Shown: positions 30,908 to 55,104, counted from the stretch's first letter. The stretch is DNA of 64,000 nucleotides from an uncultured Gemmatimonadales bacterium (GCA_963741945.1 CAVUKA010000004.1:160001-224000), one strand, 5' to 3'. Numbers and translations are program-made. The notes: generated by a model not told the origin, from the sequence alone.

Positions 30908-31777
30908 GTGAAGCGGCGGCTGCCCGCCGGCTTGCACCCGTCCGGTGGTGTTCCTTTACGGAGTACGGACACGAGCGTGGACGGCACGACCACGAGGCCG
31001 ATCGGCACCTACGACGTGGCCCGCGAGGCGGAGGCCCTTATCCGCTGCCTTTCGGGCGTCCTGCACGCTTCCGTCCACGCGGGCCTCGGCGGGATCGACG
31101 CGATCCACGTCACCGCAATGGACGCCGAGGACGCCCGCGGCATGCCCGCCCGCATTCGCTCCGCTCTCCTCGCCGGCCTCGCGACCCCCGTCCTCCCCGC
31201 CCGGATCCACGTCCGGACGGCCGAAGCTGGCGACCCCGTGGACACCACCCTCGGCGCACCCACCCCACAGCCCCGGGCGACCCCTCACACCGGCCGACCG
31301 CTGCGCCTGCTCGGTTCGCCCCCGGCGGAGCACGCCCACGAGCCGATCCACCAGCGGGATGCCGATCCCGGCAAGGTCGCTCAGGAAGACCAGCGCAGGG
31401 AACCGACCTACACCGGCACCCCTCACCTCGTCGCCGTGGACCTCGATCGCCCCGGCGACGGACGCGTGCTCTGTCGCGTCTCTGTCGCCTTCGACGCACA
31501 CGTCCACCGCGCCGAGGCCGCCGCCATCGACCTCCCCGGGGCCGCCGCTCACGCTGCCGCCCAGGCCACCGTCGGCGCTCTCGTCGATGCCGGCCTCACC
31601 GGCCTCGAGCTCGGCGGCCTCCGGGAAGTCGAGATCGCCGGACGCGACTACGTCCTCGTCGCCCTGCGACGCACGGACACATGCATCCGACACCGCTCCG
31701 GGAGCGCTCCCGTCCTCGACGCCCCCGAGCGCGCCGCCGCCCGCGCCACCGTGGCCGCGGCCAACGATATCCTGTAA
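30908..31777 (+). CDS. Conserved hypothetical cytoplasmic protein upstream of the peptide/HD-GYP cassette
   Basis: Two domains with a Pro-rich linker: N-terminal IDAIHV...RIRSALLA and C-terminal RAAARATVAAAN, loosely like the LeuA regulatory-domain tail; start uncertain. Confidence 0.65.
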   Translation: MKRRLPAGLHPSGGVPLRSTDTSVDGTTTRPIGTYDVAREAEALIRCLSGVLHASVHAGLGGIDAIHVTAMDAEDARGMPARIRSALLAGLATPVLPARIHVRTAEAGDPVDTTLGAPTPQPRATPHTGRPLRLLGSPPAEHAHEPIHQRDADPGKVAQEDQRREPTYTGTPHLVAVDLDRPGDGRVLCRVSVAFDAHVHRAEAAAIDLPGAAAHAAAQATVGALVDAGLTGLELGGLREVEIAGRDYVLVALRRTDTCIRHRSGSAPVLDAPERAAARATVAAANDIL

Positions 31778-31986
31778 CCGCCGCCACGATGGCGCTGAAC
31801 GAAAACCGGACCTCGGTACACACGGCCCACGGGCCTGAGAGAACATGGCAAGGAGATAATCAGGACTAACGGAGCCCCCCGCCGGCGAAAACCAGTCAAG
31901 GTCTCAGCGGAGCCTGCAGTACCAGCGGAGCGTTCGCGGCCAATTAGCGGAATACGGCCGACGCCACGCGAAAGGAGGTGACGCTT

Positions 31987-32058
31987 ATGACCGAGATGAT
32001 GTTTCGGATGATCGGGGCTATTGTCGCGCTGTTTACCGCGGGATGGGTTAGCCTCTAG
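31987..32058 (+). CDS. 23-aa hydrophobic peptide MTEMMFRMIGAIVALFTAGWVSL, absent from the ORF track
   Basis: Strong SD AAAGGAGGTG at 31971-31980, 6 nt before ATG; tandem stops TAG-TAA; 27 nt upstream of the HD-GYP gene. Confidence 0.75.
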   Translation: MTEMMFRMIGAIVALFTAGWVSL

Positions 32059-32085
32059 TAAGTGGTGGGGGCTCCGCTTTCTTTT

Positions 32086-33438
32086 ATGCGTCAGCCTAAG
32101 GCTTGGTACCTGTACATTGCAGCTCTCGCTGCAGGCGGCGCTGTGCTGATTGCATTGCTCCCATGGGATGCTATATGGGCTTTGCAACGCGCAGATGTGG
32201 CTGGCATTCTCATTTTTGTCGCCCTCGCCGTGCTGTCACAAGCCCTCGCTGTGGATGCGGCCGTGGGTGGATCCCGGTCAGCAACGGTATCGGTTTCGTA
32301 TCTGCCGCTATTGGCGATGGCAATAATTTTCCCATCGCCGGCGGTGGCATGCGCCGCCGGGGCAATGGCCGCGATTACAGAGCTTTTCAAGGGGGAAGCT
32401 CGGCGCTGGCACACAGGTGTCTTCAACATATCGCAGGCCGTACTTTCATACGGACTCGGTGCTGTCGTGTTCAGGATCGTGTTGACGGCACTGGCCGGTC
32501 CGGAAGCACGCGGCCTTTCCGCGGGGCTCGCCGTAACATTCTTCCCCTTCTATTCTTTGGTTCTTGTCTTATTTGTTTTGAACATGTCGTTCGTAAGCGT
32601 AGCAATATCTATCCGGGAACAGAAGCCCCTTTGGGGTGTGATGCACGAGTTCAGCGGACGTGGCGGGGGAAATCTTTTTTATGATATCCTGGCCAGTCCC
32701 ATGGCCTTGGTGGCCGCCTACCTCTATGCAAATCTGCAGGCCGCAGGATTAGTTGCCGTTGTCTTGCCTCTCCTTCTCATTCGGAACACCTATCTCTCGA
32801 ATAGCCAATTACAGAAAGCAAACCGCGATTTATTGAATGTGCTTATAAAGGCCATCGAGACACGTGACCCTTACACGTCGGGTCACTCCCTGCGTGTGTC
32901 CACTTTGGCGCGAATGATTGCCGAGGACTTTGGGCTTCGCTCAAATGTCGTCGCTAGGATTGAGACGGCCGCATTGCTGCACGACATCGGCAAGATAGAC
33001 GCTCTTTTTGCTCAGATCATCTCTAAAGAGGGATCTCTGACAGAGCAAGAGCGAAATATTATTCGTACACACGCCACTAAAGGCGCGGATCTCCTCGCGA
33101 GTCTCACGTCCCTTGAAAAGGACATCATAGTTGGCGTCCGCCACCATCATGAGCGATTCGATGGTACTGGTTATCCCGATGGTTTGGCGGGGAAGGAAAT
33201 TCCCCTTCCTGCACGCATTATCATGATTTGCGACTCGTTGGATGCAATGTTGTCTGATCGGCCTTACCGGAATGCGCTACCATTACCTGAGGTGCGAGCG
33301 GAACTGCAGCGTTGCGGTGGCACTCAGTTCGATCCAGATCTTGTACGCACGATCCTGGAGCGCAACACACTTGAACGTGCGGAGTTGTTGGTCGATCGCT
33401 CTGGAGCCCGGAGCCCGATGCGAGCCGTGGTCGGATAG
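32086..33438 (+). CDS. Membrane-bound HD-GYP cyclic di-nucleotide phosphodiesterase
   Basis: About 7 TM segments, then RDPYTSGHS, LLHDIGKI, HHHERFDGTGYPDGL, DSLDAM..RPYR and QFDP; metal ligands intact. Confidence 0.9.
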   Translation: MRQPKAWYLYIAALAAGGAVLIALLPWDAIWALQRADVAGILIFVALAVLSQALAVDAAVGGSRSATVSVSYLPLLAMAIIFPSPAVACAAGAMAAITELFKGEARRWHTGVFNISQAVLSYGLGAVVFRIVLTALAGPEARGLSAGLAVTFFPFYSLVLVLFVLNMSFVSVAISIREQKPLWGVMHEFSGRGGGNLFYDILASPMALVAAYLYANLQAAGLVAVVLPLLLIRNTYLSNSQLQKANRDLLNVLIKAIETRDPYTSGHSLRVSTLARMIAEDFGLRSNVVARIETAALLHDIGKIDALFAQIISKEGSLTEQERNIIRTHATKGADLLASLTSLEKDIIVGVRHHHERFDGTGYPDGLAGKEIPLPARIIMICDSLDAMLSDRPYRNALPLPEVRAELQRCGGTQFDPDLVRTILERNTLERAELLVDRSGARSPMRAVVG

Positions 33439-33559
33439 CCTCCACGCCGCCGTTCATTGCTGGACTCCGAAGCGGCTTTCTACTTTGTCCAGCCGGTCCG
33501 TCCCAACGTGCCATTGTGTTACCTGCACGGTTCAGCAGATTTGAACAGCTACTTTGTAC

Positions 33560-33583
33560 AAAACGCCTTCTTGCGAGAAGGCG
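33560..33583 (-). terminator. Hairpin with T-tract on the minus strand (possible intrinsic terminator)
   Basis: Perfect 8-bp stem CGCCTTCT (33564-33571)/AGAAGGCG (33576-33583) preceded by AAAA on the + strand. Confidence 0.4.
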
Positions 33584-33687
33584 GAAGGATGCGGCACCGA
33601 CTTTAGTCTCCCGCATTCTCGCGATTGAGCCGGTTCGCTTACACACGCAGTTTTCGAATACGCCTGCCGATGATCGGGGAGTCGCCT

Positions 33688-36600
33688 ATGCCACGGTCGC
33701 TTCCATGCGCCTATCTTCTGGGCCCCATTTCCTCCGTTCAAGTTGAACCGCAGCGCGATTTGGCCGCGAAGGAGTGGGCCCTGCTCGTCCTCATTATTGT
33801 AGATGGGCCTCAGCACCGGCAGGCAGCCGCCGATACATTATGGACCGCCTCGCCGACATCGGCCCGCCATAGCCTAAGCCAAGCCCTATATCAGATCCGG
33901 AGAAAGCTAGGACCCGAAGTTCTGATCGGAGATTTCAACGTCGTCGGGCGTGGGGGTATCAGGTCAGACATTGAGATGTTCGATGAAATGATCGAAAGAG
34001 GCGACTGGGTTTCGGCGGCACGCCTGTATCGTGGCGATCTTGCCTTCGGGCTCGATCCTGCCCTTCCGGATGCCTTCCTTGATTGGTTGGCCATTGCGCG
34101 GGAGACTTATCGCCGACGTGCGCGTGAGGTTTTGGACCACCTCCTAGCAGGGGGTGAAGCGGAAGAGGCTTCACGTTTGGCCTCAGTTCTCCTGGACTAT
34201 GATCCGGCCGATCCCGTCGCCATAGCGGCCAGCCAGGTTCACTCCGACCCTAGGCCGAACCTCACTACCAGCCTTGGCTCTGACTTCCCGCCGAAGCTCT
34301 TCGTTCGGTTCGTCGGCAGGAGTTCAGAACTTGAGTTTCTCGAGCGAGCTGCAAATGCGTGCGCAGGGGGATCTGTAAGAGGTGTAGCCATCACGGGGGA
34401 AGCCGGTGTTGGAAAGACCGCGTTGCTGACTCGATTCCTTCGGCTTCAGGCCGTGCGAGGCTCAAAGGTTCTGACTGCGCGAGCGAGTGATGTAGAAAAC
34501 AACTTGCCATTCGGCGTTGTAACGCAATGGGCCCGCGATGCCATTGATCGCGATCCGCGTCGCGAAGCTAGCAGCGCCTCTCGCTGCGCGGATCACGAAG
34601 ACTACCTTGTTTCATTGCTGAGCGGCGAGGTGGGCGGTTCTTCTCCGGTTGAGGACTGGGACCAGTTCCGGTTTCTTGAGGCACTCCGAAGGCTCTTTCT
34701 CCAGACATCTCGGGATCGCCTCCTTATCCTCAGCGTAGATGACATGCAGTTCGCGGATGCAGCGTCGATCGGTTTCCTCCGGTACGTAGCACGCATTGGC
34801 ACTGACGCTCGCATCCTTTTTGTTGCAACCGTTAGGACTCAATTGGGGGCTTCTAACGTCCCGTTTTCCGACACGTTGCCGCTACAGCGGCTTGATCTCC
34901 TCCCCTTCTCGCTCGACGAAGTTGCAGAATTTATCGGGCGTCTCGCTGACGCCCGAGACCGGCAACGTTTCGACCCTTCGCAGGTGTTTTCGAAGACAGG
35001 TGGAAACCCTCTGTTGCTGACATCGCTAATGAGAGATCGGGGAAACGAAACTCTCCCAACTCATCCTTCACGCGGGTACGGCTTCTTCACAGAGCAAATC
35101 CACTCATTAAGCGGTAACGCTGAGAAGCTGCTGGCGGCAGCCTCAGTCGCCGGAGAACCTATCTCAATGGCCAACGCTGCGCTGATTGCCGGCATTCCCG
35201 AGAACGAGATGGGTGAGGCGGCGTTGGAGCTTGAATCATCTGGGCTGTTGCTACGGGACCAAAGAGGTGTCCGCCCTCGCCACGGGCTGGTCGCAGACGC
35301 GGCGTTGGAGGAGCTTTCCTCTTTTGACCGACGCTCTCTATACGGGCGTGCCGCAAGCATCTACTCACGGTTGCAGTTGTCCCCCGCAGTGTTGGCAGTC
35401 CGCCATGATATCGCCGGCGATCGCGGCTCGGCATTCTCTGCCGCATTGAGGGCGGCAGCGGCGAGCTCTGAGCTACATGCGTACCGTGAACACGAGTTCT
35501 TTCTGAAGCTTGCCTTGGACAGCGCGCCAAGCCAAGAAGAAGCTGCCCAGGTCAAGGTGGACTTAGCAGAACTCATGGTTCGTTCGGATAGAAGGCGAGA
35601 AGCTCACGACCTTCTCGACGGCATCACAACTGCCGACATTTCAGACAAAACTGCCGCGAAGTCGGAGTCTCTGAAGCTCTTGCTGGCGCTTTCGGCCGCT
35701 CGCGATGAATCTATTCTGGACCAGTCTCTGCCCTTAATCGAAGAGCTGCAGGGCCGAGTAACGCCCACACGACTTGCTGAGTTGTACGTAGAAGTGGGAG
35801 CGGTAGCTCACGATTACTCCCGCACCGGTATGGCCGTTGCGGCCGCACAAGCCACTTTGGGCGTGTGTCGGATGCATCCCGGTTCGGCTGTGCTTTCGAG
35901 AATCGCCGCGCGAGCAGCCACAATTCTGGGCACGTACGTTGGATATGAAGCAGGGCTCGAAGCGATTAGTGAATGGATGCGGCACGCTGAAGACGCACCC
36001 GAAAACAAGGCAGCGCTTCTGATTGCTAGAGGATCCATTCTCATGGGCGCTGGGCGATTGACAGAGGCGGTCGAAGCATTTGCCGAAGCGATGGAATTCG
36101 TGGAGCAGTTCGGACTGTACGATCTTCTTTTTTCTGTACACAACAACATCGGGGTTTGCTACCTAGAACGCGGGATGTACTCGCATGCCCGTGGTCATTT
36201 TGATCGCGCCTTGGCGTTGGCCAGAGACGGAATGGTTGCGAGCCATGCGGGCATCGCGGTAGATAACTATGCCGGTTTCCTTTACGAGGTTGGAGACCGA
36301 GAAGGAGCAATCAAATATTGCAGATCCGCGCTCGCAACCGAACAGATCACCTCCGTTCGCAGTCTATTGTCCCAGCATTCCATCATTGGTCTATGTTCGC
36401 TCGAGATAGGGCGGGTTTCTGCGGCACAGGCAGCCCGACGGGAAATTGCGCTGACATTGACAAACCAGGAATATCAGGGGAGCGATATCTCTTACATCGA
36501 GATATTTTTGGCGCGCATGTTGATGCTGGAGGGACAGGCGGATCGGGCGAAGGCGCGTCTGGCCACGGCCATCCGCGCCTATGCGCCGCGCGAGGAGCTC

Positions 36601-36768
36601 GCGTCCGCGCGGATGGAGCTCGAGCTGGCGCGCATCGAGCTCCGTGAGGATCCCGCGGCCGCGGGCGAGCGGGCGGAAGCGGTGCTCGCGCGGCTGGCTG
36701 GCTCGGGCGCCGTCCCGCTCATCGAGATGGCCGAGAGCCTGGTCCATCGGGCGCTCACCCGCGTCTAG
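33688..36768 (+). CDS. BTAD/SARP-like AAA ATPase-TPR transcriptional regulator (STAND-like)
   Basis: SLSQALYQIRRKLG and LYRGDLA..FLDWL (BTAD); FVGRSSEL; Walker A GEAGVGKT; Walker B LSVDDMQFAD; TGGNPL; C-terminal TPRs (HNNIGVCY). Confidence 0.85.
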   Translation: MPRSLPCAYLLGPISSVQVEPQRDLAAKEWALLVLIIVDGPQHRQAAADTLWTASPTSARHSLSQALYQIRRKLGPEVLIGDFNVVGRGGIRSDIEMFDEMIERGDWVSAARLYRGDLAFGLDPALPDAFLDWLAIARETYRRRAREVLDHLLAGGEAEEASRLASVLLDYDPADPVAIAASQVHSDPRPNLTTSLGSDFPPKLFVRFVGRSSELEFLERAANACAGGSVRGVAITGEAGVGKTALLTRFLRLQAVRGSKVLTARASDVENNLPFGVVTQWARDAIDRDPRREASSASRCADHEDYLVSLLSGEVGGSSPVEDWDQFRFLEALRRLFLQTSRDRLLILSVDDMQFADAASIGFLRYVARIGTDARILFVATVRTQLGASNVPFSDTLPLQRLDLLPFSLDEVAEFIGRLADARDRQRFDPSQVFSKTGGNPLLLTSLMRDRGNETLPTHPSRGYGFFTEQIHSLSGNAEKLLAAASVAGEPISMANAALIAGIPENEMGEAALELESSGLLLRDQRGVRPRHGLVADAALEELSSFDRRSLYGRAASIYSRLQLSPAVLAVRHDIAGDRGSAFSAALRAAAASSELHAYREHEFFLKLALDSAPSQEEAAQVKVDLAELMVRSDRRREAHDLLDGITTADISDKTAAKSESLKLLLALSAARDESILDQSLPLIEELQGRVTPTRLAELYVEVGAVAHDYSRTGMAVAAAQATLGVCRMHPGSAVLSRIAARAATILGTYVGYEAGLEAISEWMRHAEDAPENKAALLIARGSILMGAGRLTEAVEAFAEAMEFVEQFGLYDLLFSVHNNIGVCYLERGMYSHARGHFDRALALARDGMVASHAGIAVDNYAGFLYEVGDREGAIKYCRSALATEQITSVRSLLSQHSIIGLCSLEIGRVSAAQAARREIALTLTNQEYQGSDISYIEIFLARMLMLEGQADRAKARLATAIRAYAPREELASARMELELARIELREDPAAAGERAEAVLARLAGSGAVPLIEMAESLVHRALTRV

Positions 36769-37523
36769 ACCAGCCCCTCTCGCCGGAGCCACTCCTCGAC
36801 GATCCACTCCCATCCGAGATGATCCCGGACGAACAATGGCCGATAGCCAATGAGGCGGTTCATGGAATTGCTCATGGTGAAGCCATCCGGATACCCGAAG
36901 CGACCCGCTACGCGGTTGATGTTGGAGCGCGTGTTCTGGAGGTGCATGGACGCGTGCAGCAGGCGCGCGAACTGGAGCCAGTGCGACGGGACGGGCAGTT
37001 CGCGGTCACGGAAGAACCGGCCGAGTGTCCGACGTGACTGACAGAGCTCATCCGCCATCTGCTCGATGCTGTGCACCTGCGGCGCACGGGAGAAGATGGT
37101 GTAGACGCGGGCGCGGACGTCGGCCGCCGCGAGCAGTCCCACCAGGTCCAGGTAATCGGCCACTGCGAGCGCCAGCGATTGGGGAGGCGTGGCCAGGAGC
37201 GTGCGGAGCGCCGTCATTGTTCCGCGTCCGGCCGTCGGCAGCACGCCTCGCGGTCGAAGCTCGGGAACGTGCCGCAGGACGGGCACCACCGGCGCAATGT
37301 CCTCGGGCTCTGGCAGGACCACGAACAGGGGAAGCTCGCGCGGCTTCTCCATCACCCAGTCCAGCTCCGACCACACGGCCCCGACCGCAGCCATGAACCA
37401 TACCACCGCGGCGCCTGGCTGGGGCCCCGCCGCAGGCCCGAACGTGGGCTCGACCCGCTCGTAGGTGAAGTAGGGCGGCCGGAAGAGGTGCAAACCTGTC
37501 GGGAGCTTCGGCTGGACGGGCAT
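36765..37523 (-). CDS. AraC-type HTH domain protein
   Basis: MADELCQSRRTLGR..PSHWLQFARLL..VAGRFGYPDGFTMS double HTH; GGAGG SD. Confidence 0.8.
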   Translation of the reverse strand: MPVQPKLPTGLHLFRPPYFTYERVEPTFGPAAGPQPGAAVVWFMAAVGAVWSELDWVMEKPRELPLFVVLPEPEDIAPVVPVLRHVPELRPRGVLPTAGRGTMTALRTLLATPPQSLALAVADYLDLVGLLAAADVRARVYTIFSRAPQVHSIEQMADELCQSRRTLGRFFRDRELPVPSHWLQFARLLHASMHLQNTRSNINRVAGRFGYPDGFTMSNSMNRLIGYRPLFVRDHLGWEWIVEEWLRREGLV

Positions 37524-53232: not shown

Positions 53233-55104
53233 TCAGCGCGGTCGCGCCAGCCGCCGAGTCAGAGCCGCCAGCGTACCCTGCAGCTCCGCGTGGCGCACAC
53301 CGGGCGGGAAGCAGACGTCGGCTCCGCTCTCCAGCAAACGGACACGGAGCTCCGCCGCTGCGGCGTTCAGCACCAGGATCGGGAGTGTCTCGAGCTCGCG
53401 CTCGCGGCGCAACTCCTGGATCAACGAGAGCGCCCAATCTCCGCCCTCGGTGGCCCACAGAAGCACTCCGGCGACCTGACCGCGGCGGAGGCGCTCGCGG
53501 GCGCGATCCAGGTCCGCCGCCACCTCGGCCAGGTAACCGGCGGAACAGAGCTTGACCGCGGTGGCCACGGCTTCCGCCCGGAACGGGCTGACCAGGAGGA
53601 TCTGGTGATGGCCGGGAGAATCCAGGCGTGGAGGATCCCGGCGCCCCAGCACGGTCAGCAGCGCTTCAACGACGGCAGGGTCGTATTGAAGGCTCGCACC
53701 CGCCCGAAGCTCCTCTTGCGCCTCATCAAGCTCGAGCGGCAGGCGATACGGCCGGGGCGATATCATGGCCACGAAGGAATCCGTGGCCGCGAGCACGCGC
53801 GCGAGGACGGGAATCTCCTCACCAGCGAGACCATCGGGGTACCCGTCTCCGTCCCAGCGCTCGTGATGGTGCCGGATGGCCTGTCGCACGGCCCCCGGCA
53901 GTTCCACGCCATCGAGGAGATGCAGCGTGAGATCCACGTGCTGCTCGATCCGCCGTTGCTCTTCCTGTGTCGGACCACGGTGGACGGCGGGAATCAGTCG
54001 GCCACCCACGGCCAGTCGGGCCAGGTCGCGCAGCGGGGCCGAGAGCGCCAGGTCGTGCTGCGCCGCTTCGGGAAGCCCCAGCTCTTCGGCCACGGCCGTG
54101 GCCAGGATCCGGGTTAGGCTGCTGCCACCGCGGAAAAACGGGTCCCGGTATTCCAGAAGCCCCACCAGAAGGTCCGCGAGCGTCGTCTGAGACGCGCGCG
54201 GGGGCGGTGGGGCGGAGTCGCCGGATTCCGCCACTGCTCGCAGGCGGCGCTTCGCGAACGGCGGAACGCCTCCACCAGCGTCATCCGCTGGCGGCACTCC
54301 CGCGACCGGCGCCTTTGGCCGCCACCCGAGCAGCGTCTCGAGATGCTCGCGGATCGCGAAGGCCTGGTCGGGTCCGGAGACCGGAGCGGGCGGCGGATCC
54401 GGCGTCACCGACGGGCTCGGCCTCTCGGGGGTCGCCGGGGGAATGGCACGCTCCGGCGTCGCCGACGGGCTCGCACTCCCCGGCGCCGCCGCGGCTGTGG
54501 TGTCCGGCCCATCCCAGGCCTCCCGCTCCACGGCGGCCAGCCTCGCCCGCAGACGCGGGTCTTCGGGCGAACGCTCAAGCAGTTTCCTGTAGATCCCCGC
54601 GGCGGAAGCGTAGAGACCCTGCCGGGCATAGAGCTCCGCCACCGTCTCGGTCTCGACTTCGGGAGTGCCGGTCGATCGCGCCTCCGGAGAGTGGCCGTTC
54701 CGTTCCGCTTCCATGCGGAACGTGCCATTCCCGCCGTTCGCTGGCACAGCTCGCCGTTCGGGCTCACCGATGCGGGCCTCGGGATCGGGGCCGCCCTTGG
54801 TCACGGCCATGTGGGCAAGCTGCTCCAGGGCCACCTGGTTCTCGGGATCCAGCTCCAGCACCCGCCGGAACGCCTGTTCGGCGTCGTCCACCCGGCCCTG
54901 GTCCATGTGCACTCGTGCCAGGACCACGTAGGCGCTGGCGTAGTCGGTGTGCTGCCGCAGCCCCGCCTGCAGGACGGCTTCGGCCTGCACCAAGCGGCCC
55001 GCGCGGCGATACGCGTCGGCCAGGTGGGGGAATATGAGCCCCCTGGGATGAGCCGCGTGAAGTAGCTCGAGTCGACCGATCTCGTCGCGGTTGGGTGACG
55101 CCAT
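53233..55104 (-). CDS. TPR plus degenerate HD-GYP plus receiver-like domain protein
   Basis: N-terminal TPRs; HHHERWDGDGYPDGL and RPYR present but HD replaced by RD; C-terminal REC-like fold. Confidence 0.8.
   Translation of the reverse strand: MASPNRDEIGRLELLHAAHPRGLIFPHLADAYRRAGRLVQAEAVLQAGLRQHTDYASAYVVLARVHMDQGRVDDAEQAFRRVLELDPENQVALEQLAHMAVTKGGPDPEARIGEPERRAVPANGGNGTFRMEAERNGHSPEARSTGTPEVETETVAELYARQGLYASAAGIYRKLLERSPEDPRLRARLAAVEREAWDGPDTTAAAAPGSASPSATPERAIPPATPERPSPSVTPDPPPAPVSGPDQAFAIREHLETLLGWRPKAPVAGVPPADDAGGGVPPFAKRRLRAVAESGDSAPPPPRASQTTLADLLVGLLEYRDPFFRGGSSLTRILATAVAEELGLPEAAQHDLALSAPLRDLARLAVGGRLIPAVHRGPTQEEQRRIEQHVDLTLHLLDGVELPGAVRQAIRHHHERWDGDGYPDGLAGEEIPVLARVLAATDSFVAMISPRPYRLPLELDEAQEELRAGASLQYDPAVVEALLTVLGRRDPPRLDSPGHHQILLVSPFRAEAVATAVKLCSAGYLAEVAADLDRARERLRRGQVAGVLLWATEGGDWALSLIQELRRERELETLPILVLNAAAAELRVRLLESGADVCFPPGVRHAELQGTLAALTRRLARPR

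Follow-up and report, generated by a model that had tools for sequence, protein, structure and literature searches.

Why does a stretch of conspicuously GC-poor DNA lie among the GC-rich genes of a bacterial genome, with no mobile gene beside it and with one edge inside a reading frame? The question is raised by a block at 31763-36524 of a 64,000-nucleotide (nt) window, by which we mean the whole stretch of DNA analyzed (GCA_963741945.1, CAVUKA010000004.1:160001-224000, from an uncultured Gemmatimonadales bacterium, genome G000 below); positions are counted from the first letter of the window. The block comprises a leader, a putative micropeptide gene, a gene encoding a predicted membrane HD-GYP phosphodiesterase, and most of a gene for a STAND regulator. 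The original prediction, made from the sequence alone, saw in it a hypervariable allele block swapped by homologous recombination between conserved anchors, as in pherotype cassettes, so that peptide, receptor and regulator travel together. As set out below, the block is an ancient, resident and syntenic signaling module of Gemmatimonadota and not foreign DNA. Our preferred reading, which we hold tentatively and at a probability of roughly 0.45, is that the locus is of the replacement-island type, with allele classes of this old resident module set between conserved anchors. The features concerned are the following (aa, amino acids; GC3, GC content of third codon positions; ORF, open reading frame).

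30908..31777, plus strand: orf289, the left anchor, a high-GC gene (GC3 0.86) conserved upstream of the module in the family
31866..31990, plus strand: conserved single-copy leader with a C-rich box, two to three GAGCGRAG direct repeats, a hairpin and a ribosome-binding site
31987..32058, plus strand: ORF of a putative 23-aa hydrophobic micropeptide, MTEMMFRMIGAIVALFTAGWVSL, behind a strong ribosome-binding site
32062..33438, plus strand: gene of a predicted membrane HD-GYP phosphodiesterase of 458 aa, with a MASE9-like region at aa 50-233 and HD-GYP at aa 259-427
33625..36524, plus strand: low-GC portion (to about codon 966) of the gene for the STAND regulator, with a SARP-type domain, AAA_16 and most of the TPR region
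36525..36768, plus strand: host-like 3' end of the STAND gene, the right anchor inside the gene, comprising the last ∼81 codons (GC3 0.88-0.90)
36765..37523, minus strand: gene of an AraC-type regulator (HTH_18, E 5.7e-10; GC3 0.84), convergent with the STAND gene and overlapping it by 4 nt

Maximum-likelihood two-segment fits place the changes in GC content at 31763 (from 0.746 to 0.561), at the 3' end of orf289, and at 36525 (from 0.547 to 0.695). The 4762 nt enclosed have a GC content of 0.566, compared with 0.703 and 0.695 in the adjoining 5-kb flanks, and a 300-nt sliding profile stays at 0.50-0.61 over ∼31850-36500 and at 0.66-0.76 on either side. Sliding GC and GC3 thus bear out the predicted low block, and the hand counts behind the prediction (27 of 60 in the lines at 32521 and 36121, 47 of 60 at 31681, 45 of 60 at 36601) were reproduced exactly. 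Genome G000 consists of 8 contigs with a total of 4.09 Mb, and its 1-kb windows have a mean GC content of 0.700 (standard deviation 0.030). Windows below 0.60 number 61 of 8164 and fall into 23 runs, of which the run covering the block has the lowest minimum (0.535). GC3 is 0.57 in the HD-GYP gene, which has a total GC content of 0.548, and 0.61 in the STAND gene; in the flanking GH3, orf289, AraC and BNR genes it is 0.84-0.86.

The right edge does fall inside the STAND gene. Along its frame, GC3 remains at 0.47-0.72 up to about codon 960 and reaches 0.88-0.90 over the last ∼80 codons; near codon 966 (of 1047 in total), it rises abruptly from ∼0.55 to 0.90 in less than 100 nt. The residues SDISYIEIFLARM (aa 953-965, nt 36481-36519) are followed by 82 codons, with the frame open up to the stop at 36768, so that the return to host-like composition, predicted at about 36510-36540 and ∼80 codons before the stop in an intact frame, is found where it was expected. 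No other match to this high-GC 3' end beyond chance was found in the G000 genome, and gene conversion from a paralogue was therefore rejected as its origin. The shift toward A and T touches every amino-acid family and all three codon positions, and the amino acid composition is shifted too; third positions are A.18, C.30, G.28 and T.24 in the block versus.07,.42,.43 and.09 in the flanks. Such a shift is what one would expect if directional pressure had differed over a long time.

Atypical composition might also mean that the block is a foreign island acquired recently, either with a mobile element or from a donor of low GC, and other low-GC islands of G000 do carry defence and polysaccharide genes. 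Nevertheless, we consider such an origin very improbable. In agreement with the original prediction, no integrase or transposase was found among 15 neighboring ORFs scanned (a symporter, thymidine kinase, photolyase, rhomboid and other non-mobile genes, four of them having no Pfam family), and no tRNA gene lies within 15000-50000 of the window. Repeats bounding the block were limited to short imperfect matches, and searches of viral and plasmid records gave no close match. The block is therefore unlike a mobile genomic island, as it has neither integrase nor transposase, tRNA target or flanking direct repeats; moreover, the locus is syntenic and GC-poor in a sister species, in a sister genus and across the phylum.

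The sister species is represented by G001, the only other genome of the same genus, and the sister genus by G071. Collinearity of G001 with the window extends over 9.1 kb, and the order GH3-orf289-HD-GYP-STAND-AraC-BNR is kept in both G001 and G071, and in part in other genera. By tblastn, G000 and G001 are 73% identical in GH3, 67% in orf289, 57% in HD-GYP, 82% in AraC and 73% in BNR, while STAND is 44% identical over residues 31-905 and 77% over residues 917-1044. The predicted divergent interior between conserved anchors is therefore present, HD-GYP (57%) and STAND (44%) contrasting with AraC (82%). The six genes of G071 are, in order, 66, 52, 59, 32, 59 and 65% identical to those of G000. 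In a global alignment of G000 and G001 the GC profiles are nearly superimposed: on the right, GC content changes at 36525 in G000 and at the aligned position 36510 in G001, and on the left at 31763 and 31801, respectively. Identity itself changes at 32044 (from 0.73 to 0.57) and at 36466 (from 0.58 to 0.79), so that the edges of divergence and of GC content coincide in the two species. As both edges are common to the sister species, there is no sign of a recent event in G000.

The same comparison bears on whether two organisms were joined at ∼36525 by an assembly error. The step in composition is sharp, and none of the listed contigs of sequencing run X1 spans 36525; this DNA run contains 0.40 of the sampled words, in short contigs that leave several bins uncovered, and among the runs listed there was no RNA run. 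Coverage of the junctions, proposed earlier as a check, is thus available for the left edge, bridged by an X1 contig at 31721-32165, and for the right edge no listed contig provides it. The reading frame, on the other hand, is intact across the step, and the C-terminal segment aligns to the STAND C-termini of G001 and G073. Since the independent assembly of G001 has the same gene order and both GC change points, with the right step at the aligned position, a chimera is excluded for all practical purposes.

How far does the module extend beyond these genera? In the family, a strong HD-GYP match is found in 32 of 73 genomes and in 22 of the 44 high-quality ones (G000, G017 and G020 included; the last two, which are unpublished, were used for this tally only). 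A scan of one genome per species yielded 493 related stretches, from which 80 phylum loci were kept; they come from Gemmatimonadota, Longimicrobiales or Gemmatimonadales metagenome-assembled genomes, along with a few otherwise-labelled bins. Three gene orders occur, namely, HD-GYP > STAND > < AraC, as in G000, HD-GYP > < AraC, STAND >, and HD-GYP > < STAND < AraC, and the AraC gene adjoins either HD-GYP or STAND in all of them. In genus g5, to which G071 belongs, the content to the right of HD-GYP differs between species: STAND-AraC-BNR in G071, a gene for a 1011-aa type IIG methylase-like protein in G070, and a DDE_3 transposase with Lcl_C and F5/8-type-C genes in G072. The genes replacing STAND in two g5 species (L023:287-3319, minus strand, and L024:93-3516) all lie in low-GC DNA. 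Two pairs of loci in the collection are nearly identical: L046 and L047, both from the genome_contigs records, agree at 99.6% over 11.2 kb, flanks included, and L018 and L033 (G022 and G024, with different genus codes) have the same HD-GYP. Each pair could be one population binned twice or a very recent transfer, and was counted once.

Low GC, taken originally as the mark of a swap, proved to be a property of the module itself. Sixty-four unique loci have a complete HD-GYP gene preceded by 3 kb or more of flank. In every one of them the GC content of HD-GYP is below that of the flank; its mean is 0.563 (standard deviation 0.027), and it does not follow the GC content of the flanks (slope -0.08, r -0.11, p 0.4), which extends from 0.59 to 0.76. 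STAND is below the flank in 38 of 41 loci (slope -0.04). The GC3 of AraC follows the host weakly (slope +0.70, r 0.27, p 0.08). STAND is held near 61% GC and HD-GYP near 56% in all lineages. The eight family loci examined first (seven relatives and G001) show a dip to ∼0.52-0.60 over HD-GYP between flanks of ∼0.70, which extends across STAND where STAND is present, and in G061 low GC tracks HD-GYP and STAND despite high-GC genes between them. Paralogues do not share it: GC3 is 0.80-0.90 in the five other HD_5 genes of G000 and 0.86-0.93 in the five other strong AAA_16 genes, a second SARP-like STAND among them. Because the module is GC-poor in all lineages, whatever the GC content of the host, low GC belongs to the module itself and is no sign of a donor. 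More generally, low GC should not be equated with foreign origin, as here a resident module as old as the phylum is the most GC-poor stretch of its genome.

One explanation of this constancy is selection at the nucleotide level that keeps the module AT-richer, for binding of a nucleoid-associated silencer, for mRNA instability or for slow translation of a rarely needed membrane sensor and its regulator; in that case, the GC edges would show how far this selection reaches. It agrees with the independence of host GC in the 64 loci, with the way in which low GC follows HD-GYP and STAND across intervening genes in G061, with its restriction to the module among paralogues, and with the persistence of the module throughout the phylum without taking on host GC. 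However, GC content at first and second codon positions is lowered too, and such a general shift looks like released pressure rather than selected codons. In addition, the genes evidently work without low GC in lineages where they have host-like composition. Among 26 family rows, HD-GYP GC3 is at most 0.65 in 18, 0.71-0.78 in four and at least 0.82 in four, the last being short or cut forms with the catalytic half only. Intragenic steps in GC3 recur: high values are found over the final 80-120 codons of STAND in G000, G061 and G043, and over the HD-GYP catalytic half in G008, G066 and G073. Low GC is therefore not obligatory, and we regard selection of this kind as rather improbable, noting that it is compatible with either replacement or change in place.

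Whether the divergent interior reflects allele exchange depends on how unusual the contrast between G000 and G001 is. STAND residues 967-1044 are 85% identical between the two, compared with 46-48% for the remainder. Among 73 further STAND pairs that are at least 40% identical, the ratio of identity in the last 81 residues to that in the rest has a median of 0.74 and a maximum of 1.15, and between G000 and G071 the C-terminal segment is only 28% identical. The STAND C-terminus is thus usually less conserved than the rest, and therefore a conserved, high-GC3 end is not a general property of the domain. Similarly, in 48 locus pairs with AraC identity of at least 0.55, HD-GYP identity minus AraC identity has a median of +0.09, and HD-GYP is at least as conserved as AraC in 75% of them; G000-G001, with 0.82 for AraC and 0.57 for HD-GYP, is the second most discordant pair, and the other strong outliers all involve locus L069. 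Pairs that look vertical have AraC, HD-GYP and STAND identities of 0.88/0.80/0.89, 0.78/0.91/0.74 and 0.78/0.85/0.72; discordant ones include L065-L069 (0.76/0.47/0.26) and G010-G022 (0.64/0.68/0.24). Within the g1+g5 clade, G000 and G001 are the least similar pair in HD-GYP (0.58) and the most similar, or level with it, in GH3, orf289, AraC and BNR. Replacement also agrees with the turnover of genes to the right of HD-GYP within g5, and with the finding that the other low-GC islands of G000 are classic variable loci. Ratios of within-genus to between-genera divergence were heterogeneous even among the flanks and were not used as evidence.

The main competing account is rapid evolution in place, with no exchange. 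Here, the sensor parts (MASE9 and the NTPase-TPR portion of STAND) would be under diversifying or relaxed selection, the last ∼80 STAND codons would be constrained in this genus only, and the edges would simply be domain edges. Both edges are common to the two species, as a single inherited state would be, and the HD-GYP tree of g1+g5 is a star with long end branches (0.35-0.50), in which G001 groups with G072 at weak support (88/88). This account has difficulty with the C-terminal control just described. Moreover, constraint on the protein leaves the synonymous jump of GC3 within the STAND gene unexplained, and HD-GYP, intact in both species and usually the more conserved of the two, is here 25 points less conserved than AraC. 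We consider rapid change in place with a lineage-specific C-terminal constraint less likely than replacement, though it is the alternative to be taken most seriously.

Several observations weigh against the replacement-island interpretation and, in part, in favor of change in place. A clade of the G000 and G001 HD-GYP proteins is not rejected by the approximately unbiased (AU) test (p-AU 0.151). Among STAND proteins, that of G001 remains the closest to that of G000 (44-48% identity, compared with 31-34% for G071), an outcome equally expected if the gene had been inherited vertically and had changed fast. The G001 STAND gene is frameshifted, and relaxed constraint may have inflated its divergence. 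Fourfold sites are saturated between G000 and G001 in flanks and interior alike, with identity close to the random expectation; the interior therefore cannot be dated, and dating by synonymous divergence was dropped. The flanks themselves are deeply diverged (0.73 for GH3 and BNR within the genus, 0.59-0.68 to g5), so that the contrast is carried mainly by AraC, orf289 and the STAND C-terminus, and the comparison covers one genome of the same genus and no conspecific one. Searches for a closer allele gave little: the best of 85 matches to STAND (E<=1e-10) among 5.8 billion proteins is 38% identical, a scan of metagenome_contigs with AraC found among 478 pattern matches one relative, at 42%, and no close one, the viral_contigs scan gave one partial HD-domain match (44%), and the 33 plasmid records matching STAND are all below 60% identity, none covering 80% of the query. 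As for composition, the 80 loci were picked by similarity to low-GC queries, which may have introduced a slight bias, the catalytic half of HD-GYP has host-like GC in G008, G066, G073, G011, G057, G058 and G067, and STAND is host-like throughout in G057 (GC3 0.85).

Of the swap envisaged in the original prediction, the divergence of the interior and the coincidence of its edges hold; exchange itself was not observed directly, no donor was found, and the vertical clade was not rejected. All in all, the observation made there is confirmed and its interpretation partly supported. We infer that recombination between allele classes, and not fast change in place, made the mosaic. Under the replacement-island interpretation, long-diverged allele classes would share a single locus flanked by conserved anchors. 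The part specific to each class would end in the leader or the micropeptide to the left, and near codon 966 of STAND to the right. Homologous recombination would be resolved within the anchors, so that the last ∼81 STAND codons and AraC would follow the history of the species (82-85% identity) and the remainder of the cassette an older or faster allele history. The G001 STAND gene (L014:8748-11955) runs through three reading frames with at least two frameshifts, its four neighbors being intact; it is either a pseudogene or a product of assembly indels.

Neither replacement nor change in place explains by itself why low GC has persisted. Within bacterial genomes, a positive link between recombination and GC content has been described and read as GC-biased gene conversion (gBGC; PMC4450053). 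Conceivably, the module stays at ∼56-61% GC in hosts of 59-76% because its long-lived allele classes do not recombine with each other and are thereby shielded from gBGC, that is, from a recombination-linked force that raises GC content; we put this forward as a doubtful suggestion. It would fit the fixed GC content, the steps inside genes, the nearly even base usage at third positions and the make-up of the genome's other variable islands, and it fits less well with the good conservation of the HD-GYP catalytic half. If shielding is indeed the cause, the GC3 steps would mark the edges of recombination-competent homology, and the locus would be a natural internal reference free of gBGC, its GC content reading out the baseline of mutation and selection. 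Whatever the cause, the module offers a place to test what sets GC content in bacteria, as the same orthologues have a fixed GC content in hosts 17 GC points apart and sharp steps within reading frames coincide with steps in divergence.

What does the module encode? The HD-GYP reading frame opens at 32062, and its true start is probably the ATG at 32086. Its product matches HD_5 (PF13487) at aa 259-427 with E 1.7e-35 and 122.7 bits (cut-off 27.2), and the residues H307, D308, H361-H363, E364, G370, Y371 and P372, which form the HD and HHHE..G.GYP motifs, are invariant in 16 aligned orthologues. Judged by these motifs, it is a predicted phosphodiesterase of the cyclic di-GMP (c-di-GMP) type. 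The N-terminal membrane region matches MASE9 (PF20972) at aa 50-233 just below the cut-off (E 7e-5, 23.3 bits versus 24.3).

The STAND protein has 1047 aa if translated from 33625; the start codon may also be at 33670 or 33688. AAA_16 is matched at aa 228-400 (E 8e-19, 69.2 bits, cut-off 32.6), with Walker A GEAGVGKT at aa 258 and LLILSVDD downstream of it. TPR matches occupy aa 795-1025, with TPR_2, TPR_12 and TPR_1 above their cut-offs and TPR_MalT below (38.7 bits versus 45). The N-terminal part gives as a single sequence only Trans_reg_C at E 0.12, and the Pfam cut-offs of Trans_reg_C and BTAD are not reached. Profile A2, built from 13 STAND N-termini, matches over ∼225 positions the SARP domains of EmbR (2fez, E 1.4e-12, positions 11-236) and AfsR (8hvr, 4.9e-10), and STAND is therefore an AfsR-like 'large SARP'. 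The reading of STAND as an antiviral (Avs) or other defence protein was rejected, as no PADLOC family matches it; the HD-GYP protein gives only generic HD-domain matches in that collection. At the left anchor, orf289 has no match in Pfam, NCBIfam or PADLOC.

The leader has a hairpin, CGRCC...GGYCG, and a strong ribosome-binding site, AAAGGAGGTGA. In alignment A3 of 39 leaders, compensatory changes occur at four of the five pairs of the hairpin, and RNAalifold pairs the C-box with the Shine-Dalgarno (SD) sequence, as a possible anti-SD element, with no covariation at these pairs. GCGRAG motifs average 2.41 per leader, compared with 0.26 in shuffled sequences, and their spacings are mostly 7, 10-11 and 18-19 nt. 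Covariance model R1 of the leader has one match in G000 (E 8.2e-15, C4:191866-191990) and matches 36 of 151 sampled phylum genomes, G000 counted, once per genome in all but one. Rfam, searched over 31700-33700 at E<=1, has no family for it, the sole match being a chance-level microRNA (E 0.88). By its features, the leader is a candidate cis-regulatory RNA or a candidate operator for the STAND regulator. Plain searches for the repeat motif across the genome were uninformative, with hundreds of matches in high-GC DNA; they also brought up a tandem array with a 42-nt period and GCGGAG-type motifs at C1:92599-92877 of G000. A 17-nt inverted repeat (88% complementary) pairs an arm of the leader hairpin at 31933-31949 with the 5' part of the STAND gene at 33754-33770, 1.8 kb away, and may be due to chance.

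The micropeptide ORF has counterparts in most of the collection. A hydrophobic ORF of ∼22-26 aa ends ∼30 nt upstream of HD-GYP in 70 of the 80 phylum loci; of the remaining ten, seven are cut at a contig end. It is found in the family loci as well, most of those outside the family end in Trp, and the g1 and g5 micropeptides have a common variant form with differing C-termini. Pfam has no match to it. The conserved ribosome-binding site, length and residue pattern suggest that the ORF is translated. Because length and pattern are conserved across the phylum, the micropeptide is not like a variable pheromone, and a membrane enzyme beginning within ∼27 nt of it is more suggestive of a membrane subunit than of a secreted signal. 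As MASE9 has been proposed to bind a ligand within the membrane, a partnership of the putative micropeptide with MASE9 is a reasonable supposition, and a functional link between the SARP domain and the leader repeats may likewise exist.

The hypervariable region of staphylococcal agr begins inside agrB and ends inside agrC. The module resembles such a pherotype cassette in that a variable block has its edges inside genes and holds a small peptide gene together with sensor parts. It differs in that no exporter or processing gene is present between 30908 and 37523 and in that the micropeptide is conserved in length and pattern throughout the phylum. For want of such a gene, the pherotype analogy of the original prediction extends to shape only.

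The closest parallel is with the replacement islands of Pseudomonas aeruginosa, which include the O-antigen, pyoverdine, pilA and flagellin-glycosylation loci. As described in PMC7685784, they are present in one version per genome at a fixed position in the core, with substitution rates far above those of the core and sometimes with different gene content, and are attributed to old diversifying selection. Like them, the module is found at one locus across genera between conserved core genes, its interior is 44-58% identical compared with 67-82% in the flanks, and its gene content differs among G070, G071 and G072. Unlike them, it has been compared across species only, whereas replacement islands were defined from many strains of one species, and its cargo is a signaling system and not a surface structure or siderophore system. 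A low GC content that is phylum-wide and independent of the host has no counterpart in the portion of PMC7685784 consulted.

AfsR of Streptomyces consists of SARP, NOD and TPR parts, and SARPs bind to direct repeats, 11 or 22 bp apart, close to the -35 element (PMC10936776); PDB entries are 8hvr, 8jke and 8k60, with 2fez for EmbR. The STAND regulator has the same three-part layout, namely, the SARP match, the AAA_16 NTPase with Walker A, and TPR, and the two to three GAGCGRAG direct repeats of the leader may be its target. Their spacings of 7, 10-11 and 18-19 nt, however, differ from 11 or 22, the phylum is a different one, and no kinase partner or afsS-like target was seen.

Among HD-GYP proteins with MASE9 are those of the TM1467 type and HdgA of Streptomyces venezuelae, and it is for MASE9 that binding of a ligand within the membrane has been proposed (preprint 10.1101/2021.11.05.467447). 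The product of the module is similar in having a membrane N-terminal domain fused to HD-GYP with intact motifs, and dissimilar in its sub-threshold MASE9 match. The micropeptide, the leader and the linked SARP-STAND gene find no mention in the available text of 10.1101/2021.11.05.467447. Literature searches limited to HD-GYP in Gemmatimonadetes and to MASE9 gave no description of this module in Gemmatimonadota. With its leader, micropeptide, MASE9-like HD-GYP, SARP-STAND and AraC-type regulator, it is a possible starting point for work on c-di-GMP in a poorly studied phylum.

Two further HD-GYP loci of G000 were recorded. One is a second HD-GYP gene at C5:367883-372544, where a second SARP-like STAND gene (1230 aa) is found 4 kb away. 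GC3 is normal in both (0.89), and the pair may be a paralogous counterpart of the HD-GYP and STAND functions of the module. A further HD_5 (HD-GYP) domain is encoded at 53671-54168 of the window, on the minus strand, in a 631-aa frame of host-like GC3 (0.80). Other low-GC islands of G000 are found at C3:876000-892488 (L120), C1:666000-671000 (L122), C5:341500-344000 (L121) and C2:1-2500 (L123). Their contents include a Dnd-type phosphorothioation cluster with helicase/PLD and SMC-like genes, a Wzy polymerase with GT1 and a methyltransferase, a pyruvyl transferase with GT2 (exopolysaccharide), and an SMC-like ATPase, which are classes of loci that usually vary by replacement.

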